A stretch of DNA of 60,183 nucleotides, filler included, from Dugesia japonica (GCA_001938525.1; 6 parts of 6 records of this genome joined end to end with filler, not necessarily neighbours in it), one strand, 5' to 3'; numbered from the whole stretch's first letter, positions 6,136-60,129 are shown. Made by a program: numbers and translations. Notes: generated by a model not told the origin, from the sequence alone.

Positions 6136-6480
6136 TCACATGAATACAATTTTAATGCTGATATTTTCAACCACAATGCTGCTTTCTTCACCACAATAAA
6201 CAATGTTGATCACAAGTTGTAGTGAATGGATCTTGAAATCTAATTTTGTTAAATACAATTGGTTTCGATGATCTTGATAGATGCGAGACCAACATTGATG
6301 AATAATAAAATCCAAATTGTAAACCACTAACCAATGTTCTTTTCCGAGATTTGATGTTTGCGTATTGACGACAATAGCTTTATTAACAGAAATAAATTGA
6401 AGCTTATCCAATGGATACACACCGAGAAACTCTGATTCAAGCCATTCTTTTCCGAATTTATCTAACTGAATTGAACTAAT
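6136..6480 (-). pseudogene. Adenain-like cysteine protease (Polinton PRO)
   Basis: FLGVYPLDKL...AIVVNTQTSNLGKEHWLVVY matches the adenain IxNTD...GxHW motif. Confidence 0.85.
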
Positions 6481-6551
6481 TAAATAATTGATGAACTAAA
6501 TAATAAAAACTTACTTCATCTTTAGTTAAAAATACATGTCATTGAGATTGT

Positions 6552-9579: not shown

Positions 9580-9882
9580 TTATAATGCTGCTAATGCGAT
9601 TGGTAGTAATGCCGCAAGAGATTCACTTGTTTGTTTATACATTATTTTTCTCGTTAATCTCTTTTTCTTTGTATTAACAAGGGAAACCAACAATCTTTTA
9701 TGACGCTGTAATGCCAACTTTTTCTCTTTGCATAGAATTACATTACCAAGAACAATATATACAACAATTTTTAATAAATCATTAATAACAAACTTTGGAA
9801 ATGACTGTAACATTTTCATTGTCGACTCTTGTGGAGTCTTTAACAATAATTTTAAATAAGAAAGACTTTGTTGAAATGACAT
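9580..9882 (-). CDS. Conserved small basic Maverick/adintovirus protein (putative core protein)
   Basis: IVLGNVILCKEKKLALQRHKRLLVSL...KQTSESLAALLPIALAAL resembles the GNVPL...LxRHK...QxGGFLxxLL family; located between ATPase and integrase. Confidence 0.65.
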   Translation of the reverse strand: MSFQQSLSYLKLLLKTPQESTMKMLQSFPKFVINDLLKIVVYIVLGNVILCKEKKLALQRHKRLLVSLVNTKKKRLTRKIMYKQTSESLAALLPIALAAL

Positions 9883-10258
9883 AATATTTTTTAATTAACA
9901 CATTTATAGATTGTTTATAGCTTTATCCATTTCCCAGTTGATTGAATCTTTATCTTTTCATTTTTCTTTGAGTCTCTCTTTGATTGTTTTTTACTCTTTT
10001 TTTCTTGTTTGCAATCTTTGAATGTTTTTTCGTAATCTTTGATAATGTCTTTTATTGTTTCCTTGATTGACTTTTTATAGATGTTTTTATTGTTCTCTTT
10101 ATTGACTTTTTATTGCATTCTTTATTAAATTGATATCACTTGGAATACTTACATCATTGTTGACTTAATTGTTTATTTCTTCAACTTTCTTGGTTTGATT
10201 AATCCTTTTTGGATCAGCTAAAACTTTACTAAATTTAAACATTTGTAAATATTTCAAC

Positions 10259-10884
10259 TTACTTTAATTTTTTATGTACTGTAACATCTTTTGGATTAAA
10301 AATATCAGTTTGAACTCTTAAATCATCTGGACATTGCTGTGTAAAATTCAGAAAATTATATCCACGTGGTTTTGCTGTTGCATCTTTAAATGAATCCAAT
10401 AGAAATCGTCTATTATTTGGATACGCTTGTCTTACTAGTAAATCAACAATAGTTTGATCTCTTGAGTTTTTGATTATAACCAAGTATTGCACATTTAAAT
10501 TACGATTTCTATGATCACTTCAATGATGAAATAGATTTTATGTAATGAATAGCACAGTAACACCACAATTTCTCTATATTTTTGTGAATAAATTACTCAA
10601 GTCTTTTTCTTGTTTGCTTTCTGGTACAGATCATCAACAACAATAACAACACCGTTAGTTAATCTCTTGATCCAATTTATATCGAATCCATTTATAATAG
10701 TTATTTTTATACCACTGAATTCAGATTGAGTCAATCTATGCTTTTCATCTGCTTCTCTATGCCAATATATTTTGTTGAATTTTGACTTGAATAAATTCGA
10801 TTTCAACAATCTCCTCACAAACAGAGTTTTTCCTCTACCACTTGGACAAACAATTTGATAGACTGCATCATTTCTTAACTCCAT
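10259..10884 (-). pseudogene. FtsK/A32-like DNA packaging ATPase (Polinton), frameshifted
   Basis: Walker A-like CPSGRGKT, Walker B VIVVDDL, QYLVIIKNSRD, DATAKPRGY. Confidence 0.88.
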
Positions 10885-10974
10885 TATAATTTATGCTTGT
10901 TTAAACGTATCACTTTAATTATTATTGTTTATAGATGTATAAATACCCTTTTTAATATTATCTATTAGTCATAA

Positions 10975-11361: not shown

Positions 11362-14242
11362 TACCATAAATTGCAAGGCAGACCAAGTGTTACGGTATCA
11401 ATTCAAGGAAGAAAAGTAGAATGTCTATTAGATACAGGAGCTCGAATTAACGTGATGAGTTTTTTTTGTTTTAATAAACTACGAGAAGTAAATTTAGAAA
11501 TGAGTGATGAAAGATTGCGTTGTGCAAATAATAGTACACTTGAAATTTGTTGGAAAAGTTAAAATTGGAGTGATAATTGATGAAGTTTGCATAGAGATTA
11601 CCTTCTTAGTTGCTGAAAGAGTAACACCAGATCTGATAGGAGGAATAGATATGCAGAAGATTTTTGGATACCAGCTTNNNNNNNNNNNNNNNNNNNNNNN
11701 NNNNNNNNNNNNNNNNNNNNNCATTTGCAATATTGAAGCAAATTTTGGAAGACAAATTAAAAAAGGAGAGCGATTGACAAGAGCTTTAAATATTTGTAAG
11801 ATTAAAGATGATCAACGGTTAATGAAAAGAATTGAAAGTAAAGAAGATGTTTTTTTGGCAGATAAATGGGATACAGGACGCACACATCTGACAAGACACA
11901 AAATAATCACAAGTGGTGAACCAATCAATGTAAAACCGTATAGACAACCAATGAACTTAGAATCTAAAATTGAAGAAGCTATCCAAAACCTTTGCGAAAA
12001 TATTATTATCAGGAAATGCAACTTACCATGGAATACCCCANTGATATGTGTTTGGAAAAAGGAAAAGAAAGACATAAGAATATGCTTAGATTTTAGACAA
12101 TTGAATGCAGTAACGAAAAGACAAGCTTTTTGCATGCCTAATGTCGATGAAATGCTGGACAAGTTAGATGGAGCCAAAAGTTTTAGTTCAATAGATTTAG
12201 GAAATGCATACTATCAGGTAGAGCTCGAAGAAGAATTATAGAAAAAACGGCGTTTTCAAAGAAGCGCGGGCAATATTGTTTTAATAGAATTCCATTTGGC
12301 TTTGCAGCGGCACCAGGGACATTTCAAGAGATGATGACAAAAGTGGTAGGCGGAATCAATGGATCCATGGTTTATCTTGATGATATACTGATATTTACGA
12401 ACAATAAAAATCAACACTATGAAGTTATTGAAAGAGTATTGACGGAACTAATGAAGGCTGGTCTAAGAATTAATCCGGAAAAATGTCAGTTTCTTCAAAG
12501 TGAAATCAAGTTTCTTGGACACATAATTAGCAGGGATGGTGTTAGAACTGATCCGTCTAAAATAAGAACATTTGGCAAACCTAACTGTGTGAAGAAGTTA
12601 CGAAGTTTCTTGGGAATTTGGAATTATTACAGGAAATTTAAAGAAAACTACTCAAGAAAATCAAAGATATTAGAACAGTTGTGTAGCGGACCAAGCAGCA
12701 AGAAATTAGAATGGACAGATGAAATAAACGATACTTTTGAGGGTCTAAAAAAATCTTTAATGACTGCACCAATATTGTGTTTTCCGGACATAAACAAAGA
12801 ATTTATATTAGATACAGATTCCAGTTTTGATACGATTTGAACAGTATTGTCACAGAGAGATAAAGAAGGAAGATAAAGAGTCGTTTCCTATGGATCACAC
12901 TCAATGACAAGTCATGAAAAGGGATACTGCATTACACGAAAGGAGTTATTGGCTGTTTATTATTTTTGTATGCATTTTAAACATTACTTGTATGGTAGAA
13001 GATTTACTCTAAGAACAGATCAGAAAGCTCTAACCTTCATGATGACGACGAAGAAACCAATTACGTCGGAATTCTAGACATGGATTAATTATCTGACCAG
13101 TTTAGATATGATTTTGGAATATAGAAAAGGAATTCAACATGCTAATGCAGATGTCAAATGTCACATGAAGATGCCAAGAAAGGGAAGATTAAAACGAGAA
13201 TACTGAATATAATTGAAAAAGAAAAAGAAGATCATTTAAATATTTCTCAGGAAACAGATTTAATCAAGAAAATGAAACTTCCGGATGACAAAGTACGTGA
13301 AACAATAGAAGAAATACATAAATTATTATGTCATGCAGGANNNNNNNNNNNNNNNNNNNNNNNNNNAAACAAATATATTGCAAAGAATTTGTGCAGCCAA
13401 ATACAGAAGATAGTTCGAAGTTGTGAAATTTGTCAGAAGACCAACGTAGTGATAACACCAACTAATGAGAAGACAAAGAGTATAGAAGCTACCAATTTAT
13501 TTGAAGTGATTTTCACAGATATATGTGGGCCAATGCGAGAAACAAGTGACGGAAAAAATACACTCTTGGAATAATCTACCAGTACAGTAAATATATGGTT
13601 CTTATAGAATTGCCAAGACAAGACGAGGAAACAATACGAAAAGCTATTTTTGAAAAGTGAATATTGAGATTTGGATGTCCAAGAGAGATAAGATTAGATT
13701 GTTGGAAAGCGTTTGAATCCGGAGTTATGAGAGAGTTTGTACATAAGCTAGACATTAAACTTTGCTTTTCGAGTCCCTATCATCATAATGCAAACGGACA
13801 AATTGAAAAACAGTTCAGAACAATTCAAGATTTAATTAATGAAACACTTCAGGAAAGAAAGTCAACAGATTGGGCAGATCTTTTACCGGAAAGAGAATTT
13901 ACAATGAACGCAACCAAACAGAAGACGACTAGAAAGAGCCCGGCTGAGATTTTATTTGGAAAGACAATTAGCAGAGAAAAGTGGTATGAGTCAGACGTTT
14001 CAGATAGAACTAAAGAAAATACTTCAGACGTGGTTACAAAAAGAGAATTCAAAGTGGGCGATATCGTATCCATCAAGGTAGAAACAAGAAATAAAAGCCA
14101 AGACAGGTTTGAAGGACCCTATCAAATAATTGAGAAAATTCATGAAAGGCGGTATGCGGTACAAGGAGAAAATGGACAGCGATTAGAAAGAAATGTAGAA
14201 AAACTCAGAAAGTTTCTTAAGAAGGGGGATATGAGGAAATAA
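11362..14242 (+). mobile_element. Ty3/gypsy pol pseudogene (PR-RT-RNaseH-IN)
   Basis: LLDTGA protease; PWNTP, DFRQLN, YLDD RT; DTDSSFDTI RNase H; HAG/CEIC and TDICGP integrase; FEGPY motif; multiple stops and frameshifts. Confidence 0.95.
14219..14229 (+). other. Polypurine tract, marking the probable start of the 3' LTR at ~14230
   Basis: AAGAAGGGGGA at the end of the integrase frame, followed by T(A)TGAGG. Confidence 0.65.
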
Positions 14243-14361
14243 TTATTATTTAATAATTTTGAGCCAATAGAAATTGAGTTAAGGCTGGTCAAAGATTTTT
14301 AAAATACTATTCAATAATCATTTCTAATATTAAGATATAGTTTATAGTAGTAAAATAAAAA

Positions 14362-15985
14362 ATGTCTAACAAAATGAATTCAGATTTGCAAAATGAATTA
14401 ACAATTGAAGATTTACCTAACATAAATAAAAATCAGTTCAGATATTATCTGTGTTATTATTTTAATCGCTCAATATTGGTTGGAAATATCTTTCATTCTC
14501 AGTGATAATATCTTATGAATGCCTATTTATATTTCAGTGGAGAATCGATAAGAACAAGTCTGGGATCGCCAGACCCGGCGAGTGGTTTTTGAGGTGCTAC
14601 AAAAACCCCTACAATAGAGACGCCGGCGTACTAACAGACCGTTCCGATCTGCCTGTAATAGAAGTGGTAGTTGAAAGGATATGAGATTTCGGAGAACGTC
14701 AGAACGTTTATTCTTGGGACGGTCCCCTACGGAGTATAGTGACCCAATTTTCATATAGAGTTCCGGTAGCTCCCCCTGGTGTAAGAGCATGTATTAATTA
14801 TTTACTCTGGAGTGTCAGGGACCCGCAAACCTTAAAAACTCAGAAAATTCTGAAAACGTGGAGAACGGTGAAAATTAATTTGGTTTTGATGTTATGTTTA
14901 TAATAAATGTATTAATTCGTAACCTGTCTATGATTTCTTTCTTTACGTAAGGATATCATTTTCTTATCGGCCCTATTCTTGTTTGTTTTAACCACAGATT
15001 CTATTATCAATTGTTATGTCTTTTAAGCCACTTCCAAATTCCAAATTGTTAGGCAGTGAGTTTTTGGCAGTTGTTTTCATCATTCATTAGAATTTAATTT
15101 GTTTACAGTAACCGTTGATCTATCAAACATTTTTCATTTATTCGGTGCATTCCTCACTTAACCGATCAGTCACGCCTACTAAGAAATATCGTGAAGGTAG
15201 TGAGGATCTCGAAATGACGTGGGGCCTATATCGTTTAGCAAAACGAAAATGGGAGGCCAACACTGCTCCCGCAGGTGCCAAGGTAAAACGATTTAAGAAC
15301 AAATGTCGGGAATATCGTCTCGAGGCCGAGTCATCCCACGCTCAACAGAGATCATGAAAGAAACAGTTAGAGGCCTTTGCCGGAATTATTCACGACCTTC
15401 GCGAAAGAGAAAGTAAGCTGGTGAATGATGTCGTAGATCTACGAAAGCCTATTCCCGTCGAACCATTGTATGTTGATAAAGCAACCCAGACATCTCGTTC
15501 CTGAAATCACTTACGACCATATCATTTTTAAATAAATTATGTTTTCTTTGATTTTCAATAAAATAATTTCCACTTTAGGGTCTGCCTTCAAATCTTAATT
15601 TGATTGTTTTTTGACTGAATTGTTAACTAACCAATAAATATGTATTTCGGTTCAGTGCCTAGAATTTGCTTACCAACCAGTCTCTGCAAATGTCACAAAT
15701 TGATCCAAAAACTTTTATTAGAACGTCAATTGACTAAGTAGAATGAACGCTCCTTGTTACGACATCTCACCCAACGGAATAGATTGATAAAAATATTGGA
15801 TATCATAGTTAAGAAACAGGATGAACTGGCTTAATCACACGCGGCAAATACTCGTGAATAAAATCGACTTTTCACAAAGATATATCGCGGATCTCTCCAC
15901 TCGCCTATAACTGGAAACTTGGTAAGGTGGAATATTTTTTGAATGGTGAGCCAGCCCAGTGGCTTGACCCTGAGGCAATAAATTT
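14362..15985 (+). pseudogene. Three-unit accessory gene cassette of unknown function downstream of the gypsy PPT (copy A)
   Basis: ATG exon 14362-14478 plus 59-nt GT-AG intron joins in frame to 14538; units at ~15109-15504 and 15656-~15975; all three are homologous to 59063-60129. Confidence 0.7.
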
Positions 15986-16297
15986 TATGTAAAATTAATT
16001 ATTTATACGGAATAATTTGTCTTATTAATTTCACTAATAGTAACTCGAGTCGGTTTTACTTAAAAGGGGAGTGTTGAACCAGAACTAAAGGTGCACAGGT
16101 GTGAACTGCAAAAAAGTGATGGGAGTCAACCGCTTCGCACCGAGAGCCTAACTAGGAACGTTCTAAGAGGGGTCCCGTGAGGGCTGTTTTTTCCCCCAGC
16201 TATATTTTTCTAACGCCAACTCAGGTGGTACCCCAACAGAAGTGAGACCAAAATAGGATAAACAATTAAAGAAAGTTTTACGATTAAAATATAAATA

Positions 16298-16620
16298 TTA
16301 AAAGTTTATATATTTTCCCGTTGAATGAAAATTCCAAATTTTTGCCGAATTTACTATGTGAGATATTACGCATTTCTTCAAAACGCTTGATACTTTACTT
16401 TTTGGGATACCAATTTCTGAAAGAACATTTTGTGTGGATGGAATTATTTTACCTAATAAACCAAAATTGCAAATCAGCAATTTCACTTTAAATCCTGGTT
16501 TATAATTGTTTCCTTTAAATTATTTTATTTTTTAAGGTTATTATAAGCCTTCTTGAAATTATCTATAAAGTTAATGGGACATTTAATGTCAACTAAATAG
16601 ATAGTTTGATTTTCAACATT
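16298..16620 (-). mobile_element. 3' fragment of REL-endonuclease non-LTR retrotransposon (NeSL/R2-group)
   Basis: VENQTIYLVDIKCPINF...LLICNFGLLGKIIP...SAKIWNFH, homologous to 34371-34690. Confidence 0.8.
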
Positions 16621-16662
16621 AGTAGATGGAATTATTTATATTTTCTGGGAAATATGCAAATA

Positions 16663-17614
16663 AGTAGATGGATAGTATAGCACGGGAACATCTCCCCCTG
16701 AAGGGCAATTTTTTTTGGCCGATTTTTTTGTTTAAATTAGGTGGAATTATTTATTTTGTTTAAATGAAGTAAAATTTTTGATTTTTGTTTAAATTAAGTC
16801 AAAGTAATTATTTTTGTTTAAATTGAGTGAAATAATAAATTTTTTGTTTAAATTAACGCAATTAGTGATTCTTTGTTTAGATTAAATGAAATTAAATAAC
16901 TATTTGTTTAAATTTAATGAAATGAATAATTTTTGAGTTTCTTCATGGAAAAGTTATTGAAAAGCTTATGTTTGCTTAAATTAAAATTAAAATTAAAATT
17001 TAAAAAAATTAGAATTTATCAAATGTGATTTTCTCCCCGACAATATTAACATAAAATATTTTCCCCGAGCAATATTAGTATCAAATTAATCGCTCTAGGC
17101 AATATTAAGATTAGATACTTATCAGACAATGTTAAAAATAATATATAAAAAACAAATGAAAAGACTAATCAAAACATAAAATTTACTGTTGATAAAACAT
17201 GAATAATCAGTCATTATGTACAGTTGTTTAAATCTGGGACTTAATTGTAAATTAGATTTTAATAGTACAAATTAATTAATTAAATAACAAAAAAAATTAC
17301 CTGTAAATGTGCTTCTTTTCATAATAATTAAGTTATATCAATAAGTTAAATCATTAAGTTCAATTATTCATTTGATTAAATTTAAACAAATAATTATTTA
17401 ATTTCGATTAATTTAAACAAAGAATCACTAATTTTGTTAATTTCAATAAAAAATTAATAATTTCACACAATTTAAACAAAAATCAATAATTTTTCTTCAT
17501 TTAAAAAAAATAAATAATTTCACCTTCTTTCAATAAAAAAATCGGGAAAAAATCGTCCGGAAAAAAATTCCCCTTGGGGGGCTGGGTGATCCTGTGCGCT
17601 ACTATCCATCTACT
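16663..17614. mobile_element. Non-autonomous fold-back element with Polinton-type termini
   Basis: AGTAGATGGATAGTA...TACTATCCATCTACT perfect 15-bp ends, long imperfect inverted arms, 6-bp TSD CAAATA (16657-16662 / 17615-17620). Confidence 0.8.
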
Positions 17615-17676
17615 CAAATATAAGTGTATATATTTTAAAACAAAATTTTAAGAGAAAACAATCGAATATTGATTTA

Positions 17677-18025
17677 TGTTAAGAAAAAACAATTGAATAT
17701 CGATTTATTTTGTAAATATTTAATTTTTATGTGTAATGTATGACGATTGGGTGAAAGAGTGTGCATGTAGGATCAGTATAAATACTGATCGGGTTTTATA
17801 ATTTCTCACACAAATTTAATTGAGAGAACTTATCTCTTTGCTTGTCTTCTCTCCTTTAAAATAAACTGAGCGATATAAAGTTTACTTGTAGTATATTTAT
17901 TATACACCAAAAATTATTTATAGAAGTGTGTTTTTGTTTGTTTATTTACTTGAATAAAGGAGATACATAAATCACTTATTTATAATTTTGATTAAAGATA
18001 TCATTATATAATAATTGTATTAACA
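17677..18025 (+). mobile_element. Probable solo LTR
   Basis: TGTTAA...TTAACA, internal TATAAATA and AATAAA; TSD only 3/4 matching. Confidence 0.4.
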
Positions 18026-19049
18026 TATACACAAGAGTAAATTCAACTCCCATAAAATCAACACTTTGTTTTTATATTCTAGTATTAAAATCAGAACCAT
18101 AAATTTTTTGTTGAGTAAAAATACCCAACATACGCGAGTGTAACAAGTGGAAAACGTTCCAGAGAAAGAAGACAAAATATTGAGAGAGATACAAAAAGAA
18201 CAGAACCACAGTGTTTGACACGCCAGAGTTATGGGCATACAAAAAGAGTGTCATAATTATTTCCTCATATACCAATGTAAAACTTATAATACTAAAAATT
18301 AATTATCAAAAACTGAAACTATTTAATAACAGTATATCTCACAAACACCAAATTAAATAAGAAGATATTGAGAGAAGAAGGGCCAATGAAAGAAAAATTA
18401 TATTTTATACACATATTAAAAGCAAATAATTTATCTACAAAAATGAAATGTTTCAGGAAGAATCATAAATGTGTTGGGAGAGTAAAAGAAACAGATTAAC
18501 AAGCTTTATGTTGCTGTCCTAGGATTATGAAATTAGTAATCGCAAGAAATGACAAGATTTCGGATATATTATATGGGAATTTAATGAAGAAAGAAAAATG
18601 TATGAAGATAATACGTGAAGGCGTATCTTCTTTTAAGAAATATATTTTTGTTGATCGTAAAAGTCGATTTGATTTAACTTTAAGCTATGATGGTGCTGAC
18701 CACAAAAATAAAGAAAAATATTGAAATTTATATGGAATATATGAAATTGCGAAAGAAGCAGAAAATCACTAAAGACAACATGGTAATGCTCGCTGTATAC
18801 CTTTATCATTGGAAGCTCTGAGTTATTGTATATCGAAAAAAGGAAATTGTTAAAATGGAGAGGATTTAAGAGTATTTGAGTAGATAAATTTTCATATGAT
18901 TGTGGACTTTCAGCGATAAAGAGCTCTCAAAAATATAGAAAAATTTTAAAACTTGAGCAGAAAAAGATAGGAAATTATAGGGAAATCTTGAAAAAGGAAA
19001 TAGAGAAAAAAAGAAAGAATTAAGTTTATGAATGGCCTGTTTAGTTTTA

Positions 19050-19920
19050 ATCGGCAGAGAAGAACGGCACTCAACCGATCTGTTTGAAATTCCCTCTGAC
19101 CTGAGTAATATGTTGAACAAAATTTGTATTATATCTTAGAAGTACTGCTATTCTTTTCGACAACTTGAAATGTGTTACTAAAATATCCGATTGCTCGTTT
19201 TTGTATCTTTTTAACTAATAGATAGTGCTCTTTGCATAACTATTTGCTTCTTTATCTAGTATAAAAAGTTTTGAAAAACTAGTTGTACTAGTATGGGTGC
19301 TGCCATTAGTTCTTCTTGTGTTATCTCGAAAGTTTTTTATGTTCTTCTGCTCACACTGATTTTGTCTTATTTCACTAGTGATTGTATCGGTTTCACTTTG
19401 ATTGCGAATCCTTTGATAAACAACACTTTCTACAATAATTTTCCATAACCCAGAAATACTTGTATATCATATTTTTTGGTATTAGTAACTTCTTTATCTT
19501 TTCAATATTTGCTGGATTAAGTTGCTTAATTTATATGATATTCGGTTTATCATTTAATTTTTGGTTAATCATATGTGACGGTTGTCGAAAAAATTAATAA
19601 ATCCTGTATGTAAACTATACTATATAGTATGCTATGAATTACAAAATTCATTGTCTTTTAAAATGATACTCGTGCGTCCATCAATCTGAATGGCATTTAA
19701 ATTAACTCGTATAAGTCTTTACTATCGAAAAACGCAGTTTTATCTTAATGTGTTTCTTCAATTTTAATTTGCTAATAACCACTTTTTAAACCAAATGTCG
19801 TAAAGACTTCCACATTATGTAGCAACATTAACATCTCCCTGATATCTAGTAAATGAGACACATCTTTCTTTGTTTCCGCTTTTAATTGACAGTAATTGAT
19901 ACAAATAAGTTTTTCTTTTT
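19050..19920 (-). mobile_element. Highly decayed gypsy RT/RNase H
   Basis: YELI*MPFRLMDA, QVFLGYGKL and LMAAPIL-like fragments on the minus strand. Confidence 0.6.
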
Positions 19921-22339
19921 TAAAAACAAGAGGATTTCATTGATAAATGGATGAATATATTGACAAGGATCAACTCAATAAAATTCGCTAGAGGCGGAGT
20001 TAAAGCAAAATGTAACAACAACAATGACTGCGATGGAATTTGATGGGAGCTTGTTAACAAGACTCATTGGTAGAGTAATGGTAATAATATCAATGATCAT
20101 ATTGATGATAGTAACAATATTATTAATAAAGGAAAACGAGGACAGTACACGAAATTGAGAATTCAGGTGGATTATATAAAAATGACTTTAAATATTTTCA
20201 TTCGCTAAAGATAATGATAAGGTCAAGATTTCACGAGAGGAGAACTGGCCAGTACATGAAGGAAAGAGTGAAATGAGAGATAAAGTTTACATAGTTAAAA
20301 CTCAATATATATTAGTAGAAAAAAATTGCTTTGAACAATGTATTAGTTATTAAAAGTGTATGCTATTAAAAAAAATTATTGGAATCAAACCTGAATAGTT
20401 GAGTAGAGTAAAATAGTAAAGAATTAATGGAAATGTAGAGAAATAAAAATTTGATCATAAATTATGTTAATTGAATGAAAATAATAAAAATTGTATTTTA
20501 TTAGAAAATGGATCCAGAATAGCAAATCAATATAGAGAATAGATTATACGAAAAATGAGTCTTTCTTTCTAAGTCAATCAGAATTGAAAGAAGTACTGAT
20601 TTCCACAGCCGGACAAAGCCATCTGTTTTGGTCGTTTTGTAAAAAAGATCATTATTTGTGATTGGAGAAACTTTGAAGATATTTTGCACTTCGAAAAAGT
20701 TCCGAAAGCTCGTGCTATCGATTCTGAAATCTACTGTACCAGTGTCACTTTGTCGTGTTTACGATAAAGTAGTGAGAAGTATCATACTTTAGTCCGTTCA
20801 AAACTGCCTTCTTTCACGAATACAGCTTTAAGCTACACATAGTCAAGAATACTAAAGAAGAACTTGAAATTTTAGACATTGTCGAATTTATTACACAGAT
20901 GATACAGCTTAGACGTTGCGCCATCTTTTCAGATCTATGCAATTCTCCTTTGTCGTCCATTTGAATCAACATTTCTTTCAGATGTCGGATTGGTAGTTTA
21001 AACAGATTCAAAACCTTGCAGACCGATGGCAGAAAGTGGTCAATAATGATGAACTGTACTTTGAATATTTATTGTTTTAAAAATCAATAAAATATTCTTT
21101 TTGTATTTTTTCACAGAGGTAACAGATCTTTTGGTACAAACTAATATTTCTATTATAATGAATGAATATCCCATTTTAAATCCTTTGTAATATCGTTATT
21201 ATCCTCATCTCTTAAACCAATTAATACCATTTCTAGTATTTTAATAATGATACTAATGCGGCAATTATTAACCAACAGGTCACTATATGTTATTCTAATC
21301 AATTGTTTCGTATTAAGCCAATTTCCATTGATACTAAAATTAGCATTAGTATTGTTTTTATTGATATAAGGTTTTACAATTATTATTCCTATAACTGTTG
21401 TCATTATCTTTGGATAATAATGTTTTGATCTATCATTAGTGTCGGCATTACTGTAAAATACAGTAAGTAAAGATCATTTAAGAAAAGTAAGTAAATTGTA
21501 CTGAAATTTTCAGTTTTAAAGTGTTAACCGTCTTATATTCAGTAATATCTAAATGACAAATCCAAAAAATCCAAGCCAGAACTAGTAAGACACATTGTGT
21601 CACACACTGTTAACAGAAGGATGGTAATTGAACATCATATCAGCAAATTGAATGCCGAATTTGCGGGATTCGTTTGGGCTTGAAGGAATGGATGTCGACT
21701 CATTGTGCATCTATTAGTTCACATTGCATGAACTGGAGAAACAGGTTGAACGACAGAAGCAAGAATTTGGTATGAAAACAAAGCCACGAGTAGAAAACAT
21801 GACAACGAACTAGCAGGACTACTATACCGCATTTAATGACACCTTCAGCAGCAGTAGCCCTTCTTAAACGGTTAGAAAGTGACCTTGGGTCAAACGAAGG
21901 AGTACGAGAAACAGGCTCTTAATTTAAGTGAAGTCACTGATATTGATGTTTACGAGCAGTAAATCTTATGATCTTATACTTATTCTATGTATTCAAGTGT
22001 ATTCTCTTTTCTGTAAGGATATTAAAACTTTTAACCTTATCATTTTACTGACGATTTTCGCGTTTTTTTGTAACTACTAAATTTTAAGTGAATGCGAGAT
22101 GAAATTAGTAATCTAACAAACACATCAACTCATACAAATATTTTGTAAAACAAATTTCGTCATTTAAAATTTTTTTCAAGTGCAAAGATCAAAACGATGT
22201 TCTTCTATTTTCATAGATGATTCATTATTTCGGCTATACCTTCACCAGGAACTCTTGCTAATCAAACCATCATAAAAACCAATATTGCATTAGATAAATT
22301 TGGATTTTATTATTAATATAATTGTTTCCCAACTATATT

Positions 22340-23050
22340 AATTACTAATGTTTCCATTTAGTATGTCTACGAAAAATGGTGAGCCAATTAACATCGAATT
22401 GTTAGAAGAATAGAATAAGTGGAGAACCGATAAAAAGAACATGCTAAAAATTTATTGTGAAGTACATATAATTCAAGCTTACGGACATGCGAGAGGTTAA
22501 GTGTCAACTGCAGTTGCAAGATAGCACTCACGCAAATCAATCAGGTTTAGTAAAAAAAAACCCGTATATTCCAGTATGATCCTGATACCAAAATACAGTC
22601 AATGTACAGAAAAACACCGTCATCGCCAAGAGTGAAAAAACTTGTCAAAGCAATGCTGATTGTGTTTATAGACATAAAGGGTGTCATTTTGCAAGAATGG
22701 GTTCCTTAAGGCACAACAGTTAACTAGCATTATTATGAAGATGTTTTGATAAACCTGAAAGAAAGAGTCAGAAAGAAACTGCCACAGCTGTTGGAAAATG
22801 GTTTCATTCTTCAACCGGACAATGCTGCTACATAGCCCTTTTATTCTCAGACAAGCACATTACTACACTTGAACATCTACCTGATTTATTTTCCCCCAAA
22901 AGTTACAATTGTGTTTAAAGGAACACGTTTTGTAAAAAAAAACGCCGGATGAGTTGGCAGAAATAGGTTTAATCTTGACATTCGACTAGTGGAAAACAAG
23001 AATGCAGCGATGTGTTAGTGCAAATGGGGATTATATTGAACGGAACAAAC
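22340..23050 (+). mobile_element. Decayed mariner transposase (different family from 2025-3308)
   Basis: KAMLIVFIDIKGVILQEWVP*GTTVN*HYY...RVRKKLPQL...ILQPDNAA; WKTRMQRCVSANGDYIE. Confidence 0.85.
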
Positions 23051-24559
23051 ATGAATTATTTAATAGATATACCTCGTATATACGTATTATTATTTAAATT
23101 AAATACACAAAGTGCGCCTGATAATAATTTATTCAACTGTTTCAACTTCAATGCCAAATTACAATTCCTCACTGTCAATTGACAGCACAATCAATCACTA
23201 AATTGAGGCATAGAAAAATCGTTCATTTTACTCTCTCGTGCACTGAGTTACCAGATTATTAGTGAATGGTAAAATTTACTACATTATCATTATAATTATT
23301 ATTAATTTTATTATTATCATTATTAATTTTATTATTATTATCANNNNNNNNNNNNNNNNNNNNNNNNNNNNNNNNNNNNNNNNNNNNTTAATTAATTAAN
23401 NNNNNNNNNNNNNNNNNNNNNNNNNNNNNNNNNNNNNNNNNNNTCTATTTTAAATTTGTTTCATAATTAATAGTTTTCTTTCGGTGACCTTTATGCAACC
23501 AAGAAGATCCTAATTAAGTTTTATAATTTAAAGTTTAAATCTTTCGTGACATCAACGAAATCAAGGAATTTATCATCAATTAACACGTTATTAATTTTAA
23601 TTTATCAAGAATGTGATTTTTATCAATTAACAAAAAAATGTAAAACGTCAATAAATTTCTACTCAAATTTTCAATCTTATGTTTAATTAAATTGGTAGAC
23701 CTTCCAGAGCATTAAAGGCTTTGAGTTTTCTTTCCTTATGTGACTTGGAGTTGTTCGTGGTCTTTGATAAGTAAAATTTATTTGATGGCATCTGAAAGGA
23801 TACCATAACACCATTTAAAGTAAAGCCAGAATTTAAGTTACGTATCATTTGTATAAAGCGCGTAATAAAATGATAAAAAAAATTTTATAGAGAAAATGTC
23901 TTTCAATTAACAAAAATAAGGATAAATCACAATGTTTCCGTTTAAAATTATTATTATGCAGAGTATTATTTAGTCTATTGTTAATGATTTTCATCGAAGA
24001 CAATTTAATATTGATTTTTATATATTGTTTGCTATCATTTTCAGTTTATGTATCTATCTAATTTTTCTCAATTGTATATATTTGTGGTTTAATCACATCT
24101 TTTAATTTCTATAATTTATTATCAGTTATCCAATAACATACGCATTTCATGATTTTCATTGTGTAATTGAATTATCATTAATGCCTGGAAAAATTTACAT
24201 AATAAATTCACTTCAATTTTCAATTGTAATAATATGAGAAAAATATAAAATAAAATATAAAAATTGTTTTCCGAAGAATTGTTAAAATTTTAACCCTTAA
24301 GAAATCAACAAATCATTAATCTAGTCGACATTATCAAACAAGGGGTCTTTTTTCTTATCGATCTCTAACGTAAGGACATGAAAGACGATCGGGACATACA
24401 TCAATCAAAAATCGACAAAGGTAAAAGTTGCATCAGTAGTAATCGATATCATGAAATTGAAATATATATTTATTATTTACACTTAATATTTAAACAAATC
24501 AAGGTCAAAACAATTTCGAACTTGTTTGTCTCTTCCACATTTTTAGCACCTTTTCAGCT

Positions 24560-26189: not shown

Positions 26190-26972
26190 TTAATCAGAAT
26201 CTTCACTTTCATCATCAAAGTCTTCTCCAATAACAATTTTTGGCTTCACTCTCGATTTTGAGGTTCTTGTTATCAATACAGTTTTCCTACCTGTTTCTTC
26301 GATTTCCTCTTCCGATTCAATGTCTGACGCTTCAACAAACTCCCTTTCTTCTTCATCCATGTCAACATCTTCGTATTCAGATTCATTTTCGAACTCCTCA
26401 ATATCATTTTCCTTCAAATAGTTTTCAAAATGAATTTTATTGAGATTCGCTATTCCATTCTTTTTAACCAGACGCTCAATTAAATCAGTTTCTATAGATT
26501 TTTCGACATTTGCACCTTTCAGAGCCTTCATTTCTCTTCTGTTTTCGTTTCGTTCAACTTTACGAGATTTAGCAATTAGAACTTTGGTGGTGTTCAATGC
26601 TATCTGTCTTCTTCGTTTTATCACTTTTTTTAAACATGCGAATCTGGTTTTATTTTTTTTGATGATGTGTGCTGGCCAATAAATTAAATGGCGATTTATT
26701 TGATCTAAAGCTTGATCGACGTTTTCCTTTAATTTTATTTTTTCCCAATGCTTAGCTGGATATGGCATTCTCTCTGGTTCTCTAATATATAAATAGAGAA
26801 TATTATCCTTCTCTTTAACTGTTGCGTATCTGTAATTCGCCAAGGGACATGCTGTTCGGTTGCAGAGACCATTTATGCTATATTCATTTTTACAGAATTT
26901 CTCAGTTTTAGTCTTGCACATGAAGCTACAATGATTCTTACTTATTATATCCCATATGATATCTTCACTCAT
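26190..26972 (-). CDS. MAK16: MAK16 homolog (60S biogenesis factor), 260 aa
   Basis: DIIWDII..HCSF, FCKNEYSINGLCNRTACPLANYRYATV, WEKIKL, LIYWP, acidic C-terminus; probable 43-nt 5' intron 26973-27015 ending at the ATG. Confidence 0.96.
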   Translation of the reverse strand: MSEDIIWDIISKNHCSFMCKTKTEKFCKNEYSINGLCNRTACPLANYRYATVKEKDNILYLYIREPERMPYPAKHWEKIKLKENVDQALDQINRHLIYWPAHIIKKNKTRFACLKKVIKRRRQIALNTTKVLIAKSRKVERNENRREMKALKGANVEKSIETDLIERLVKKNGIANLNKIHFENYLKENDIEEFENESEYEDVDMDEEEREFVEASDIESEEEIEETGRKTVLITRTSKSRVKPKIVIGEDFDDESEDSD

Positions 26973-30489: not shown

Positions 30490-30951
30490 CTACTACTTTT
30501 GGTTGATCATGGTCCATTAGACATTGCACGCATGTTCCGTATGTATTTCTTGAATGCATATCTGCATTACCATGTGCTGTACCTTTTCTAAATGCCATCT
30601 TAATATCCAGGGTACTCGAATAATTGATCCATATTTGGAATTGTGCCGTTATTGGTTTTTTAGTAGTTAGCATGATTGTAATCGCTTTATGATCTGTACG
30701 TAGTTTAAATCTTTTACCATACAAGTAGTGATTGAAATGCCGACAGAAATAGTAGATCGCCAACAATTCTTTCCTAGTAATACAGTAACCCCGTTCATGA
30801 TCATTCATGGAATGAGATCCATATGATATTACATGTTCATGTCCGTATTCATCCTTTTGAGATAATACCGCTCCAATGGTATCAAAACTTGCATTGGTGT
30901 CGAGTATAAATTCTTTTCGGAAATCTGGGAATATCAATATTGGAGAGCTTA
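30490..30951 (-). mobile_element. Gypsy RNase H fragment, same family as 11362-14242
   Basis: FILDTNASFDTIGAVLSQKD...YCITRKELLAIYYF...RTDHKA...HGNAD. Confidence 0.92.
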
Positions 30952-31229
30952 NNNNNNNNNNNNNNNNNNNNNNNNNNNNNNNNNNNNNNNNNNNNNNNNN
31001 NNNNNNNNNNNNNNNNNNNNNNNNNNNNNNNNNNNNNNNNNNNNNNNNNNNNNNNNNNNNNNNNNNNNNNNNNNNNNNNNNNNNNNNNNNCCTAAAAAAC
31101 TCATTACTAAGAAATTTATTACTAGATGATTTTTTAATATTATTATTATTTAAATTAAAATACTCTATTTTATTTACATTTTTATAGCCAATATCATTAT
31201 CAACATCAAAATTACCTAATAAATCGCTC

Positions 31230-31620
31230 CGACCATCGCCTCTCTAGAAGGAGCTTAACCCTTTGGGTACTCTATAGCTTCATATTCCCCAGTTAGTTCA
31301 TTGCTTTGTTCTTCTACTGGTGTATCCTCATTAGAACCGATAGCTGCTATCATTTTTTGATTTTTCTGTTCCTCTGTTGATCTCTGTTCATGAAATCTCT
31401 AGTCTCATTACTCTGATTTCTGAAATTACCATGTCTCTTATTATTTATATTATCAACTATTCTCGCTTTCTGTCTTCTTTCTAAATTTGTGTAACACTCT
31501 ATTGTCTTATGTCCCTCAGAAGACATCTTCCACACTGAATTGTTGGGCATTCTCTACGCATGTGTCCCAATGCTCCACATGCATAGCATTGAATACTTTT
31601 TTTCATTTGGCAATCTCTGT
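31230..31620 (-). mobile_element. Gypsy gag fragment with two CCHC zinc knuckles
   Basis: CYACGALGHMRRECPTIQCGRC...(frameshift)EGHKTIEC. Confidence 0.8.
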
Positions 31621-31872
31621 TTATATGCCCTGGTTTTTAGAATGTCCAACAAACTGGAATTCGTCTACTTTCATCATATTTATTTATTTTCATATTTGTG
31701 TTGGGGTGAAACACCGGACTAAGGAAAAAAATAATGGTGTAAGTAGACACGGAATTCGAAAGATCTACATAANNNNNNNNNNNNNNNNNNNNNNNNNNNN
31801 NNNNNNNNNNNNNNNNTTAATTAATTAANNNNNNNNNNNNNNNNNNNNNNNNNNNNNNNNNNNNNNNNNNNN

Positions 31873-41104: not shown

Positions 41105-41139
41105 TTCATCGAAACTTTTATTTCATATGTATCTATAGA

Positions 41140-45160: not shown

Positions 45161-45217
45161 GGAATTTGATCGAAGCTATTTTTTCAATGAAATCTAAAAT
45201 AAAATTATTATTATTAA

Positions 45218-54851: not shown

Positions 54852-56793
54852 TACTGGAGCACATGTATCTCACTAAATTTCGGCCATTTGATTCCTTATT
54901 ATGATTATACTCCAAATTCTTATTTTAAAACCCGTTAATGGTGGTAATATCATCAGGGGCCTAAAAAAGTATGGTACCAAGAAGAGAGGAGAATTGGGAC
55001 ATTAAAAACGACCAATAATAATAACAATTTACCAATAATTTGTAAATCAATAAATAGAAGAAGATCCAGAAAATAATAAACAATGAATATTATTATAATA
55101 AATCAAAATCAAGTCATGATGATTTAAGAAATAATAATTTATCATACAAAAAATAAGGAAAATATCAATTTAATTAAAATAGAAACCACTAAAAAAATTA
55201 ATTAATTTTACTGGGAAAAAAGAAGCATAATTACCCAAAAAAATCGGGAAAGGAAATTTGAAAAGAGAAAGTCACGGGGCAACTAAATTCGGTAACAAGA
55301 AAATTGTAGCTTTTACGAAAGGCTTGATAAAGGGGTTCCAAGGTTCGGCCAATAAGAGGCCAGAAAATAAAGAAAAAACAAAGACCTGGAAAATACGAGG
55401 TGTCCTAAAAATAGGCATCAATAATGAAGTAGAAAATCTTAGAAAATTTTAGAATTTGACAAATGGCGCCGATCAGAAGTGACTAACCAAAAACAAAAAT
55501 AACTAACCAACAGGAAAGTAGTCGAAATTCACATGAAAAGCTATAAAAGCTCTCCAAACTTTAGTAGAAATCAATCACTTTTTCTTAAAATTAACTACCT
55601 GACTTACTCACTAAATCTCTTTAAAGTAAATCACATCTCCATTTAGAAAAGAACTAAAGTAATATCCCCTGTATTTAAATTTGGATTAATTTAAATTTAA
55701 GGAAGAGAAAATTTCATTCAGATAATATGATACTTAGTGCTACCTAAAGAAAATGTCAAGAAACCCGTTGCAGAAACTCAACCTCTAAATTCTAATTAGT
55801 AAGTATGAGTATATTTATGTTGGTTATTTTACATTAATTGTTTTTTTGGATAAGTAAATAAATAATATTCTGAATTAAAATTTACTTTATTCATATATCC
55901 TTTTTTATTATTATTGAATTAGATACTAGTAAATAATCACATGAATAGAGAAATTATTCTCCTCGTTTATACATTAAATAGATAAGAATCCACTGAACTA
56001 TTTATTAAATTTACAGATTTATTCGTTAAATTATCGCGAACAATTCACGATTTTGGAAACTACACATTAATGCCACAACTGTCACCGTTAATCCCGATGA
56101 CTAATGAGTAGATATTCTGAGGAACCATTCGTTTTGCAAATATGCTCAAATCTGTGAATGCTTGTAGATTAGGAAACCGCACCTAAGGTGAATTGCAATT
56201 ATGTTCACATTGTTCATGTTCTGAGTCACGAACCACAAATTTTGGACAAGAAATGAGACTCATTAATAAGTAACTGATCAAGCCGTAATTGCTTTAAGAA
56301 TGATGAATTTCTCATCGTAATCAGACATACTGGTCTTTTCCCCCAACTGCACTAAACTGAGTATGTGTGTCCAGGCTAAGTTCATGTTAGTCATAGAATT
56401 AGTTCACGGATGAATAAATTATTGGTATATTTAATAGTAATATTCTGTTTATTTGCAGTTTATGGCTAACAATGTAAGTGGAAGAATCCTGACCAATCTA
56501 CTCAGTAATATCTTTACTGATGACGTTATCATTATACCATCATTAATGATATGATTGTTATCGACTAACTTTCTTATAGTTTCCATCGTAAAATTATCAG
56601 AACCTGTCTCTCAATGTGGTTTTGTAGCACTGTTAGTGGTACTTTAAATATTATCCTTTATGATCGTCACTGCTACTAATATTATTCTGATTAGCTTTAT
56701 TGGTATTACCACCATTATTGTGTTTATTAGTTAATATAATTACGATCGTTTATTCGGTTTTATTATTCGCATTTTTATTATTATTAATATTAT

Positions 56794-58308
56794 TGTTGGG
56801 GTTTTATCTAGGTGGGTTTATTTTTTATAATTTCGTCTAGGGTGGTTGGCCTAGAAAATCCCAGCCAAGAATTTAATCTGGAATCCTAAAAAATCCAGAT
56901 CTTCAGAATGGAGCCGTTCACTCGTAGTTCGAGTAAAAACTCGCATTCCTTTAGTTTGGGTTCATACTTCAAGATACTCGCTTAATTTAAGATGCACTTA
57001 TCGTTTTCTTAAAAGATTTCTAGTTTATGGAGTGTTTATTAATCTGATTAATCCTAGTTATTTTTAATTTCATTAGTTAGGAGATTAATTATCATAAAAA
57101 CAAAAGAATTTGTGAGATAAAAATATATTGGGATTAACAAACTTCACTTATTAATAATTAAGCATATAATTACAACAATCAATATAACTATCATAGACCG
57201 AATCCCAATCCGGAGCAAACACAGCACGCGAATTGACAACAGTTCGGTAGCCAGTAACGATTGTAATGGTCCTCCATAATTTTCCATCTACCAGTTGGAA
57301 ATCATTGCACCAAAATTTCAAATGGATAAATAATTACCTTTAAGATTCTTGATTTCAGTGAATTTTCCAATAACGAAGATTGATTAATATTGCTTTTTGT
57401 TTTTTCAAGGTTCATTTTGAGTACAGATTTTCACTTAAGGATTAATTTTTTAATGTCATTATCGTCTGAAATTGAAACTAAATTTACACTGTTTTTCTTT
57501 ACACCCTCGTTTCTTTCATTGGTTACTTAACATCGTACGTTTTTTCTAATGTCTCTATTAGCTTGAATGTCACACGAGTTCATTTTATTGGTGGTTATTT
57601 TAGGATTCCAAAATTATTGGTCCATCATCAAACCTTTGAATCTTCTTTCTGAATCTTGTTATGATTTTTTAACATAAATTTTCAAATTCTCCTAATTTTT
57701 CTTGACCATAATCTTCTTAATTGCTCATTTTTTCCACCTTGGGAAGCCGTCGTTTTTGCCATATTTCACAAAATATTTAATTTTCTTTTAAAAATAAATC
57801 ATTTTAATTCGTATGATTTATTTTATTTAAATAAATGAATTATTTATTTTATTTTCTTCTTAAATATTAATTATATGCTCATTTCTTTGTTTTTCTGATC
57901 TTAAATTAATTTAAGTTCATCCTTTTTTCTTTCATTAATTAATTTAATTTATTCCTTTAATTTATTTTCTCTTTCTCCAATTATTAGTTCAATATGGTTT
58001 TCTTAGTTTTGACTAATGAACTAATTATTCATTGTTTTCTTTATCTGGCTGATAGCTTATATTACTTCTTTTCTTCCTTTCGGCTTTCTTATTTCTGAGT
58101 TGTTTCTTGCTGTAACTTTAGATTTTGCTAGTTATTACGTTGGTTTAAACTACCAGCCTAGGATTTTCTCTTAATTATTTCTTTCCTTCAATGAATTGTG
58201 ACTTTCCTTTGTCTGGATTCTTTAGTTCCCCATTTGGTGACTATCTTTTCACTTTCGACTTTACTTACTGCCATTTTTAATCTCCGTACCCGGTGTTTCA
58301 CCACAACA
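56794..58308 (-). mobile_element. Large solo LTR (1515 bp)
   Basis: TGTTGGGG...CCACAACA ends, 4-bp TSD TTAT; end motif TGTTG(T/G)GGTGAAACACCGG recurs at ~31699. Confidence 0.75.
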
Positions 58309-59062
58309 TTATATTAGTACGAATCGGGCTATTGTCATCATTTGACGCTATTACTACTGCGCTTTATCAATACTATTACGGCTATCGATAGTTTTCTAAT
58401 TATTACAACATTATTACAATTAATGTTATCATTCATCAGGTGTATTATGATTATTATCATTATTAGAGGGTGTTTTTAATATTATTATTCGTATTATTGT
58501 TGTATTTATTATTATTACCATTAAAATTACTATTCCTAATATGATTTAAATTATATTTTGTACCAGTATTGTATTATTAACCCTTTACATAGCTTAATCG
58601 ATTAGCATAACTCTATTCCCGTTAAACACGAACTATGATCTACCGAATAATATTTTAACTTTGACGAGTTCTTATAAATTTCTTTCAGGCGAATGTCTAG
58701 GATTCTAATGGACACTCTGAATCTCATACTACAGAAAAGGAAAGGAGCCCGCCAAAAGCAATTGATAGACCATCTCCTATTCCACTATATAATTCTCTTT
58801 CTGGATGAGTTGGATTTATCATGTTTTAAAGAATTGAACCCGCTTCCATAGAAAGTGGATATCTATTATGATGCGTAATTAACTGATTCGCGTTGTTAAA
58901 TATATATTTGAACTAACCATAATTTTTACTCCCTATTATAACTTCTTTGTATGAGAAATTGAGTTAAAACACTCTATATGTCTTGCATGTAGACAATTGC
59001 AAATTTTTATCCAACTATTCTCATTTACCGTTTGAATTGATAATGACCTATTTACTATTTAG

Positions 59063-60129
59063 TGGAGTTCAAATGGGAATTAATCCAAGACAAATCCACT
59101 AGCTGAATGATCTTTAAAAGATATATAAATCCGTACGATCGAAATGCTGGTGTCCTAGTGGAGTGATCTAACTTACCAGCTAAAGTTTTCTGTTTATTTA
59201 GATAATTGCATAAATCGTATACCAACATAGTTATGTCTCAACTTTGTTGTGTTCTTATTTAAAAATTTTTAAAATACATTGATCTGTAATTAATATTCGG
59301 TGCATTTGTCCGTCAATCGTTCAGAAAGTACGCGAAACCAGCGAGAACATCGAGATGTCCTGGGAGTTTTATAGGCATGTGAAAATAAAGTTGGAGGCCG
59401 ACACATCTAACGCCAACGCGAAAGTCAAGCGTTACAGAAACAAATGTCAAATGTATCGGCTCGAAGTAGAGTCTTCACACGAGCAAGAGCGGCTCTGAAA
59501 AAAGAAGTTAAAAACATTTGTTGACTCCATCCGGTCCCTCCATGACCACAAAAATAAACTAGTAGCTGACGTTTTAGAATAAAGGAAAAACATGAAGGAC
59601 GAATCTGTGCAGACTTCGCGCCCATAATTGGAATGTGACGATTCTATTTCAGTTGTAAATAAAACCTCGTTTTTTAAATATATCATCTTGTATTCGCTTA
59701 ACTTATAACTATGTTATTACCTAAATGGTGTTAAAATATATAATTTAACCTTTCATGATTTATTTATTTCTAGTGCCACGAATCCAACTGCCCACAAGTC
59801 TACGTCGGTGCTACTATCTCATTTAAAAACTACTTCTAGAGAGCTATATTAAGAGACAGAACCAACAGGCCTTGCTGCATCAGTTAACTCAAAGAAATCG
59901 ACTGATTAAAAAGTTAGACCTGATAGTGAAAAACCAAGGGGAGTTAGTAGAACACACTAGACAGATACTAAACAATAAAATTGACTTTTTACAACATTAT
60001 ATCGCCGACCTATCAAGCCGGGTGAAACAGGAAACCTGGGTTTGCTGGAATAGCCACGACGATAAGGGCGCTTTCAATTTTATGAATGGCGAGCCCAGGT
60101 TTAATGGAACCTGGGACATTAAACTATAA
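59063..60129 (+). pseudogene. Accessory cassette copy B (units 59063-~59180, ~59296-59627, 59774-60129)
   Basis: Collinear protein homology to 14538-15975: NPYxRxAGVL, AKVKRxxNKC..YRLE.ESSH, VPRIxLPTSL, LTQRNRLIK. Confidence 0.75.

Follow-up and report, generated by a model that had tools for sequence, protein, structure and literature searches.

Three small genes, here called units 1, 2 and 3, recur in two deeply diverged copies among the six scaffolds of Dugesia japonica (GCA_001938525.1) that were joined via spacers into the 60,183-nt stretch analysed here (the window), copy 1 on the second scaffold (11362-23343) and copy 2 on the sixth (50682-60183). The units are real genes under strong purifying selection. 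We put at roughly one in two the probability that they are accessory genes forming a 3' internal cassette in a family of elements, probably non-autonomous, with short long terminal repeats (LTRs), and that copy 1 is nested with an ordinary gypsy retrotransposon. The order of the units, selection on their coding sequence, their reading phases and motifs, and a polypurine tract after unit 3 are shown by the data. From the sequence we infer the assignment of the segments LTR-B and LTR-C to the cassette element, the splicing of its RNA, its mobilization in trans and the function of its proteins.

Recurrence of the units and selection on their proteins

The original prediction for this DNA had placed three units behind a gypsy integrase and reported that they recur on another scaffold. 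Units 1-3 were found there in the same order and on the same strand at 59063-60129, and the pairs of peptides quoted for the two copies are present in the sequence. Selection was evaluated with 233 codons aligned by hand between the copies, 225 of which were used and 8, with a stop, left out. The proportion of nonsynonymous differences (pN) was 0.254 and that of synonymous differences (pS) was 0.919, in agreement with the many synonymous changes reported earlier and giving a ratio of 0.28 (bootstrap 0.22-0.34) that is not near 1; the five remaining frames gave 0.45-1.99. The Fisher p values for units 1, 2 and 3 were 1e-7, 9e-21 and 2e-27 respectively, values that are somewhat optimistic because the aligned blocks were picked in the protein-conserved frame. 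The proteins, of about 110-125 amino acids, are ∼40-60% identical between the copies and the synonymous sites are saturated, indicating that the copies represent families that separated long ago rather than a recent duplication, and that selection on the proteins continued well past the split. The presence of two such saturated copies within 60 kb points to a family that is old and probably abundant. Both copies are decayed, as had been noticed before, with five stops in 326 codons of copy 1 and five in 256 codons of copy 2, plus frame breaks. The window DNA is ∼25% GC and crowded with decayed mobile elements; the GC content is 39-45% in units 1-3 versus 23-29% in the spacers beside them. The features are collected in Table 1.

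Table 1. Positions of the cassette units, candidate boundaries and neighbouring pol, counted from the first nucleotide of the window (LTR, long terminal repeat; PPT, polypurine tract; PBS, primer-binding site; RT, reverse transcriptase).
Feature	Position	Strand	Remarks
Decayed Ty3/gypsy pol (protease region, RT, RNase H, integrase, SH3-like tail)	11363..14242	+	Pfam and PDB; possibly a separate element
PPT1, polypurine tract of the pol element	14219..14229	+	one of two PPT+T[GA] sites in 120 kb
LTR-A start, 3' LTR of the pol element	14230..14246	+	17/17 inverted match at 18253-18269, the sole exact match
Unit 1, copy 1	14538..14903	+	phase-1 frame after an acceptor AG ending at 14537, broken near 14590; two stops inside; AATAAA at 14902
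Unit 2, copy 1	15109..15504	+	coding conserved over 15139-15501; basic helix and four-heptad leucine zipper; internal TGA (15355-15357); AATAAA at 15531 and 15557
LC8/DYNLL-type motif DKATQT, C-terminus of unit 2	15475..15492	+	fits positions -4 to +1, not +2, of the motif in PMC3078936
Unit 3, copy 1	15656..15992	+	phase 1 after an acceptor AG ending at 15655; long coiled coil; internal stops; frame broken near 15833 and 15923
PPT2	16062..16071	+	70 nt past unit 3; the other of two PPT+T[GA] sites
LTR-B, candidate 3' LTR of the cassette element	16072..16238	+	167 bp; TGTTG...CAACA; 50% GC; flanks GGAG/GAAG
LTR-C, candidate 5' LTR of copy 2	55270..55461	+	192 bp; AGTCA...TGACA; weak termini
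Candidate PBS, begins TGGCGCC	55464..55476	+	2 nt past LTR-C; sole TGGCGCC in 120 kb, both strands
Candidate leader exon, copy 2	55753..55804	+	ATG at 55753, its frame stopping at codon 12; last exon base A (55798); GTAAGT at 55799 as consensus donor, in phase 1
Unit X, copy 2 only	56017..56418	+	acceptor 56016; phase-1 decayed frame; Cys cluster; AATAAA at 56413; single copy
LTR-D, unrelated solo LTR inserted in copy 2	56794..58308	.	TGTTGGGG...CCACAACA; 4-bp target duplication TTAT
Unit Y, copy 2 only	58689..58900	+	acceptor 58688; frame uncertain; single copy
Unit 1, copy 2	59063..59190	+	3' part gone
Unit 2, copy 2	59294..59627	+	frame break near 59320; TGA 59496-59498; DESVQT at 59598; AATAAA at 59658 aligns with 15531
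Unit 3, copy 2	59774..60129	+	one internal stop; AATAAA at 60133; scaffold end at 60183

Predicted splice junctions, candidate leader exon and candidate LTR boundaries

Conservation of the predicted splice acceptors was upheld for units 1 and 3, for which the alignment between copies beat 299 of 300 and 300 of 300 shuffles respectively, scores that are biased upward because the alignments were anchored on the AG; the AG at 15108 before unit 2 is not conserved in copy 2. The dinucleotide TG follows each of the four acceptors of units 1 and 3, compared with a background of 5.4% of 407 acceptor-like AGs. When the reading frames of both copies were compared, phase 1 obtained a BLOSUM score of 30 after acceptor 1 (10 and -7 for the other phases) and of 53 after acceptor 3 (5 and 2). 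No early Met is common to both copies in unit 1 or unit 3, and in unit 3 both copies lack an early in-frame Met altogether. Since units 1 and 3 are in phase 1 and share no early Met, an upstream exon ending one base into a codon is needed. Pyrimidine-rich AG acceptors and an AATAAA had also been ascribed to each unit. AATAAA signals and acceptor-like AGs carry little weight alone because they occur at 3.0 and 3.4 per kb respectively; in unit 3 of copy 1 the last AATAAA (15977) precedes the likely stop (15990-15992).

The start of unit 1 had been sought in a local ATG exon (14362-14478) joined in frame through a 59-nt intron, a proposal that was not supported. The donor, GTTGGA, is poor. ATG-open stretches of at least 39 codons are common, at roughly one per kb (122 over the six frames). 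No significant equivalent of the upstream region was seen in copy 2, with 91 of 300 shuffles scoring equally. The join is in phase 0 whereas the conserved frame after acceptor 1 is in phase 1, and it merely appears in frame because of the frame break near 14590 in copy 1. Copy 2 contains a candidate leader exon that ends in phase 1 at a GTAAGT donor, a sequence with 25 occurrences in 120 kb, a figure denoting throughout both strands of the ∼60-kb window (120,362 codons in six frames).

Two modes of expression had been offered, alternative terminal-exon splicing and spliced leader (SL) trans-splicing, of which the former is the best fit. Flatworm SLs end in AUG (PMC12582326). An AUG-ending SL gives phase 0 and the conserved frame is phase 1, for which reason an SL-supplied start was rejected for units 1 and 3. 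In an SL-resolved operon, the SL AUG would be in phase 0 or each cistron would have its own start; units 1 and 3 show neither, and unit 2, which has a conserved Met, may still fit such an operon. Conserved coding in unit 2 begins near 15139 in a frame that opens on a stop, with the conserved Met slightly further in. A candidate 53-nt intron, GTGAG...TACAG, precedes unit 2 at 15056-15108 in copy 1 only, and aligned AGs are located upstream of the unit at 15027 and 59201.

Copy 2 has two additional segments, units X and Y, that are acceptor-led, raised in GC content (0.36 for unit X versus 0.19 in the preceding intron, and 0.37 for unit Y) and located upstream of unit 1, with the solo LTR-D inserted between them. 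A candidate 15-nt micro-exon at 56459-56473 of copy 2, with an acceptor, a phase-0 ATG and a consensus GTAAGT donor, may be a second leader for unit Y. LTR-D is 1.5 kb in length with a score of 60 versus a null of 23 (0 of 200), and its end is also inserted in a gypsy gag at 31698-31763 (minus strand). It splits ∼700 nt of low-complexity sequence (56474-56793 and 58309-58688) that is Asn/Asp-rich on the minus strand and is a possible decayed antisense open reading frame (ORF); a tract at 19960-20200 resembles it. A long "antisense ORF" at 57100-58600 of copy 2 was rejected as mostly solo LTR.

The original prediction had the integrase ending at a polypurine tract (PPT) and the cassette lying inside the LTR that follows. 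The purine tract is present (PPT1) and the decayed gypsy pol ends at 14242, consistent with the first claim, and 14230-14246 is taken as a true LTR terminus because of its exact inverted partner. The evidence leans against the second claim. A further tract (PPT2) and an LTR-like segment (LTR-B) that follow unit 3 were overlooked in the first reading, and copy 2 has no pol upstream; judged by these boundaries, the cassette is probably not inside the LTR of the neighbouring retrotransposon. The Markov expectation for a PPT followed by T[GA] is 0.15 per 60-kb strand, or 0.00025 per 100 nt, and two were observed in 120 kb. A PPT before a candidate 3' LTR is found in copy 1 only. The 3' end of LTR-B resembles two other LTR ends in the window. 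In copy 2, LTR-C is followed by a candidate primer-binding site (PBS) that we take to resemble PBSs of the lysine-tRNA type. PBS-like words at 15943 and 60088 are better accounted for by the conserved peptide NGEP.

Placement of the cassette among LTR elements

The neighbouring pol has the order protease, reverse transcriptase (RT), RNase H and integrase with a gypsy-type RT, features by which it is assigned to Ty3/gypsy. RVT_1, RT_RNaseH and Integrase_H2C2 were matched in Pfam, rve and SH3_Tf2-1 below the cut-off only, and the protease, which has no Pfam match, was recognised by eye. The best PDB matches were 4ol8 and 7q5b (Ty3 Gag-Pol), with E of 1e-27 and 9e-27. A complex LTR retrotransposon family had been proposed earlier, and this holds in so far as the units are small genes of a repeated LTR-type element; that they travel with this pol is unproven, and the codon composition argues against it. 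Four-fold sites are 50% A and 11% C in pol (n=229), compared with 25% A and 29% C in the cassette of copy 1 (n=140; p=1.4e-6 versus pol), 29% A and 27% C in that of copy 2 (n=84), and 35% A and 35% T in the host gene MAK16. Since synonymous sites are saturated, a cassette long replicated on the RNA strand of this pol would be expected to share its bias, even if genes of one element can differ, and by composition pol and cassette look like products of different histories. No pol match was obtained in the copy 2 region 55200-60183, where none of 12 pieces reached the Pfam cut-off, and no gag-pol was found from 55462 to the scaffold end, the 3' end of copy 2 being missing.

In the favoured model, a family of retroelements with LTRs of about 170-190 bp would carry units 1-3 as 3' internal accessory genes, and at least one member would have no gag-pol between the PBS and the cassette; a gypsy helper would therefore copy this member in trans, from the member's own PBS and PPT2. 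Transcription would begin in the short 5' LTR, and a single phase-1 leader donor ∼340 nt past the PBS would be cis-spliced to alternative acceptors, each unit serving as a separately polyadenylated last exon. In units 1 and 3 the final A of the leader and the TG of the exon would form AUG, or the leader's own ATG would open the frame. The unspliced RNA would be the genome, copied in trans by gypsy Gag-Pol. The segment 14230-16238 would be the remnant of a cassette element nested with the ordinary gypsy, in either order, which would place the cassette 308 nt behind PPT1. Nesting of two elements would account at once for both PPTs, for the terminus of LTR-A and for the composition, although one deletion has to be assumed, and the model is further supported by the shortness of both LTR candidates and by the PBS candidate and consensus phase-1 donor of copy 2. 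A more speculative extension, which we hold rather improbable as a whole, is that these would be protein-coding satellite LTR elements, lacking gag-pol and riding on gypsy, with at least five orphan accessory genes selected to synonymous saturation, a start codon built at the splice junction and an LC8-binding zipper protein, perhaps made via TGA readthrough, that would couple RNA to dynein or interfere with LC8-dependent silencing.

Several findings weigh against the favoured model. The 5' junction of unit 2 matches no single phase, and the leader frame opened by the ATG at 55753 stops at codon 12. The flanks of LTR-B (GGAG/GAAG) fit the target duplication of a solo LTR, with PPT2 still followed by TG. 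LTR-B and LTR-C do not align (189 of 200 and 47 of 200 nulls score equally), either because the split is old or, possibly, because one of them was called wrongly. The termini of LTR-C are weak (4/10) and CA+TGG patterns are common (29 sites). The end of LTR-A was not located before unit 1, the best match being equalled by 7 of 171 background windows, so that nesting requires an extra deletion. Neither copy shows both ends, and paired LTRs with a target duplication were not seen. Stop density differs weakly between pol (4/786) and cassette (5/326; p=0.13). As the scaffold of copy 2 ends 54 nt past unit 3, gag-pol could follow there.

That pol and cassette belong to a single autonomous complex gypsy, of the order LTR-PBS-leader-gag-pol-units-PPT2-LTR-B, is an unlikely but substantial alternative. 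PPT1 and the LTR-A start would then be leftovers of the recombination that captured the cassette, copy 2 would be internally deleted, and splicing would be as in the favoured model. In its favour, pol and cassette are on the same strand 295 nt apart with one PPT-LTR after them, the cassette occupies the usual position of an ORF3 (PMC5408684, PMC4402516), gag-pol would fit in copy 2 within the intron after the donor, and the two copies share a 14-nt exact match ahead of unit 1 (at 14269 and 58954; E 0.11). The sharply different four-fold composition argues against this alternative, as do the 17/17 match of the LTR-A start to another LTR-A terminus within 4 kb, the absence between pol and unit 1 of units X and Y that precede unit 1 in copy 2, and the lack of significant alignment between the upstream spacers. 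The same mismatch in composition also speaks against the original placement of the cassette inside the 3' LTR (U3) from 14230, in the manner of nef or sag of mouse mammary tumour virus (MMTV), which we consider doubtful. LTR-A would then extend to 18269 and contain LTR-B, an R2-like piece and a foldback element as insertions. PPT1, the 17-bp terminus and its inverted partner, which brackets the cassette, agree with this placement; so do the LTR-B flanks, which match at 3 of 4 positions, and a purine tract (58733-58747) 315 nt before unit 1 in copy 2 compared with 308 nt in copy 1. That tract has no TG or TA after it and no integrase before it, PPT2 would be a coincidence, and LTR-C, if it is the 5' LTR of copy 2, has no cassette, whereas the LTRs of one element should match.

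The scaffold of copy 2 stops at 60183, leaving room for an arrangement in which the cassette lies upstream of a gag-pol past the scaffold end and copy 1 is a broken fragment. Precedents are the two small ORFs (sORFs) before gag, with a poly(A) site between them, of MDG1 elements (PMC11952523) and an upstream accessory ORF of Burro (PMC6431247). Since the cassette of copy 1 is followed by PPT2, the LTR-like segment and an R2-like fragment, not by gag, this arrangement is improbable. The remaining explanation, that these are host genes in an operon or cluster resolved through SL trans-splicing and then duplicated and pseudogenised among transposons, is highly improbable. Its gaps of about 150-200 nt fall within the up to 300 nt of flatworm operons (PMC12582326), but an AUG-ending SL would not open the conserved frame and unit 3 offers no early Met in its place; moreover, both copies are dead amid LTR signals, their four-fold composition is unlike that of MAK16, and the homologue searches gave none.

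Predicted proteins, related systems and surroundings

The description of the products as novel, partly coiled-coil small proteins with no recognised domain was supported; Pfam gave only weak coiled-coil matches below the cut-off. Unit 3 was modelled as a single 74-residue helix with a low-confidence tail (predicted local distance difference test, pLDDT, 80.6; predicted template modelling score, pTM, 0.42), and contains heptad repeats with a register shift; a complex prediction with three copies of unit 3 scored 0.02, which has no bearing either way. Unit 2 has a basic first half and four zipper heptads just upstream of the terminal DKATQT (copy 1) or DESVQT (copy 2); its single-sequence model is helical to residue 97, with a pLDDT of 56-65 in the C-terminal motif region, a part that would be expected to be disordered and next to a coiled coil in an LC8 client. 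The LC8/DYNLL motif is [D/S]KX[T/V/I]Q[T/V][D/E] and is often flanked by coiled coils (PMC3078936). The fixed positions are matched at 5/6 in copy 1 and 4/6 in copy 2, and a relaxed pattern, set after both copies had been seen, gave three matches in all six-frame codons of the window, two of which are the aligned ends of unit 2. It is tentatively proposed from these motifs and models that unit 2 could be a basic, zipper-dimerised, LC8-binding adaptor and unit 3 a coiled-coil oligomeric scaffold; the adaptor would link the RNA or the particles of the element to dynein or to host complexes that depend on LC8. A canonical bZIP was rejected for unit 2 on the basic-region spacing, compared by eye. 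Neither unit 2 nor unit 3 is likely to be an envelope, which would be a large glycoprotein with a signal peptide, a furin site and a membrane anchor: the proteins are small, no env family was matched in Pfam and the models are helical, no membrane-segment predictor having been run, and inspection of the translations of units 2 and 3 revealed no long hydrophobic run as in a FAST-like fusogen.

The two halves of unit 2 are separated by a TGA at the same codon in both copies, and the sequence after it is still selected (pN 0.32, pS about 1.0). The naive chance of a shared stop is ∼0.09, so that convergent decay suffices, but programmed readthrough is conceivable. No stable RNA structure was predicted after the TGA (z +0.25 and +0.74).

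Searches for homologues were negative. With alignments, none of 29 candidates passed for unit 2 and none of 47 for unit 3, the latter search covering near lengths and not longer fused forms. The unit 3 profile had no match among 1.84 billion representatives. In Atlas the best score of unit 3 was 0.75 and the unit 1 tail had no usable match. PHROGs returned 0 of 5, and a PDB sequence search with unit 1 gave none. Foldseek of the predicted models against viral models gave eight matches, none with E below 6, and 248 pattern matches in prokaryotic genomes yielded no confirmed case.

Complex retroviruses (nef, MMTV sag, foamy virus bel) express several accessory proteins from one major 5' donor; they differ in that the adjoining pol here is of the Ty3/gypsy type, LTR overlap is unsupported and there is no env. 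Another parallel is the env of errantiviruses (gypsy, ZAM, springer and idefix subclades of Drosophila), a start-less downstream ORF to which splicing adds either a leader peptide from the 5' end or a portion of the start codon (10.1101/2023.08.03.551782). As described there, that product is one large F-type env with an AU|G split, in contrast to at least three small soluble last exons with poly(A) signals and a predicted A|TG split here. LTR elements of bdelloid rotifers carry diverse ORF3s, including coiled-coil ones, 3' of pol in several element types, and the non-autonomous TelKA2n keeps its ORF3 (PMC5408684). The available part of that paper describes mostly one ORF3 per element and no tandem multi-acceptor cassette, and no Pfam match ties the units to the rotifer ORFs. 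MDG1/412 elements likewise have small selected accessory ORFs, sORF1 and sORF2, with a poly(A) site between them; these are unspliced, lie ahead of gag in most cases, and include in sORF2 a membrane protein of the FAST-like type with a central transmembrane helix followed by a polybasic region (PMC11952523), a hydrophobic segment not seen in the units by inspection. The planarian Burro elements are flatworm gypsy elements with accessory ORFs but exceed 30 kb and encode a polyprotein of ∼5000 amino acids with recognisable domains (PMC6431247), unlike the short LTR candidates and orphan proteins described here. Cer1 of C. elegans, a gypsy element that is also SL1 trans-spliced, makes a spliced RNA for a novel protein (PMC3315495), and Tor3a of Oikopleura has a donor near the start of gag and an acceptor before env (PMC4402516); they differ in that each element has one product, and Tor3b/4b use an internal promoter.

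A literature search that did not extend to Repbase or to most subscription papers listed no comparable tandem cassette with several acceptors. The cassette is best filed as an unusual variant of LTR elements with accessory genes. In the parts of the literature covered, the invertebrate LTR elements with accessory genes have either a single spliced ORF3 or two small ORFs that are not spliced. If true, tandem selected and alternatively spliced last exons would bring the gene economy of complex retroviruses to a gypsy-type system, and if the carriers have no gag-pol, accessory genes alone could suffice to maintain selection on a satellite retroelement. Concrete predictions are provided by the LC8-type motif and by the phase-1 junction.

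The surroundings of the cassette contain further genes and repeats. The host MAK16 gene (26190-26972, minus strand) is intronless and divergent, with Opisthorchis as its best named matches (50%); in a tree of 30 of the 121 available rows it groups with flatworm rows (support 96/90) on a long branch, which makes a flatworm host likely, and the base composition suggests a planarian. The host U1-C gene (36-404) is also intronless and divergent, and a look-up of exact matches returned neither MAK16 nor U1-C. The window has no tRNA genes, and an Rfam search gave no matches. A second decayed gypsy at 19100-22400 (minus strand) is distant, its RT being 35% identical to that of the pol at 11363-14242, and has a mariner-like insertion at about 20560-21100; a third at 30557-31640 (minus strand) has 72% nucleotide identity with the first in RNase H, retains a gag zinc knuckle and has lost its 3' part. 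Fragments at 16316-16623 (minus strand), 18300-18750, 33641-34399 and 35514-35855 resemble R2/NeSL-like non-LTR elements with a restriction-like endonuclease end. Remnants at 6136-6495, 9580-9894 and 10597-10890 (minus strand) resemble the protease, the small core protein and the packaging ATPase of a Polinton/adintovirus, with only weak ATPase-type matches in Pfam. An element resembling a foldback or miniature inverted-repeat transposable element, with inverted arms of ∼270 bp, is located at 16663-17614, and similar ones are found at 40974-41104, 45002-45201 and 46350-47795. A tandem array of ∼40 copies of a 15-bp repeat extends over 41014-41688.

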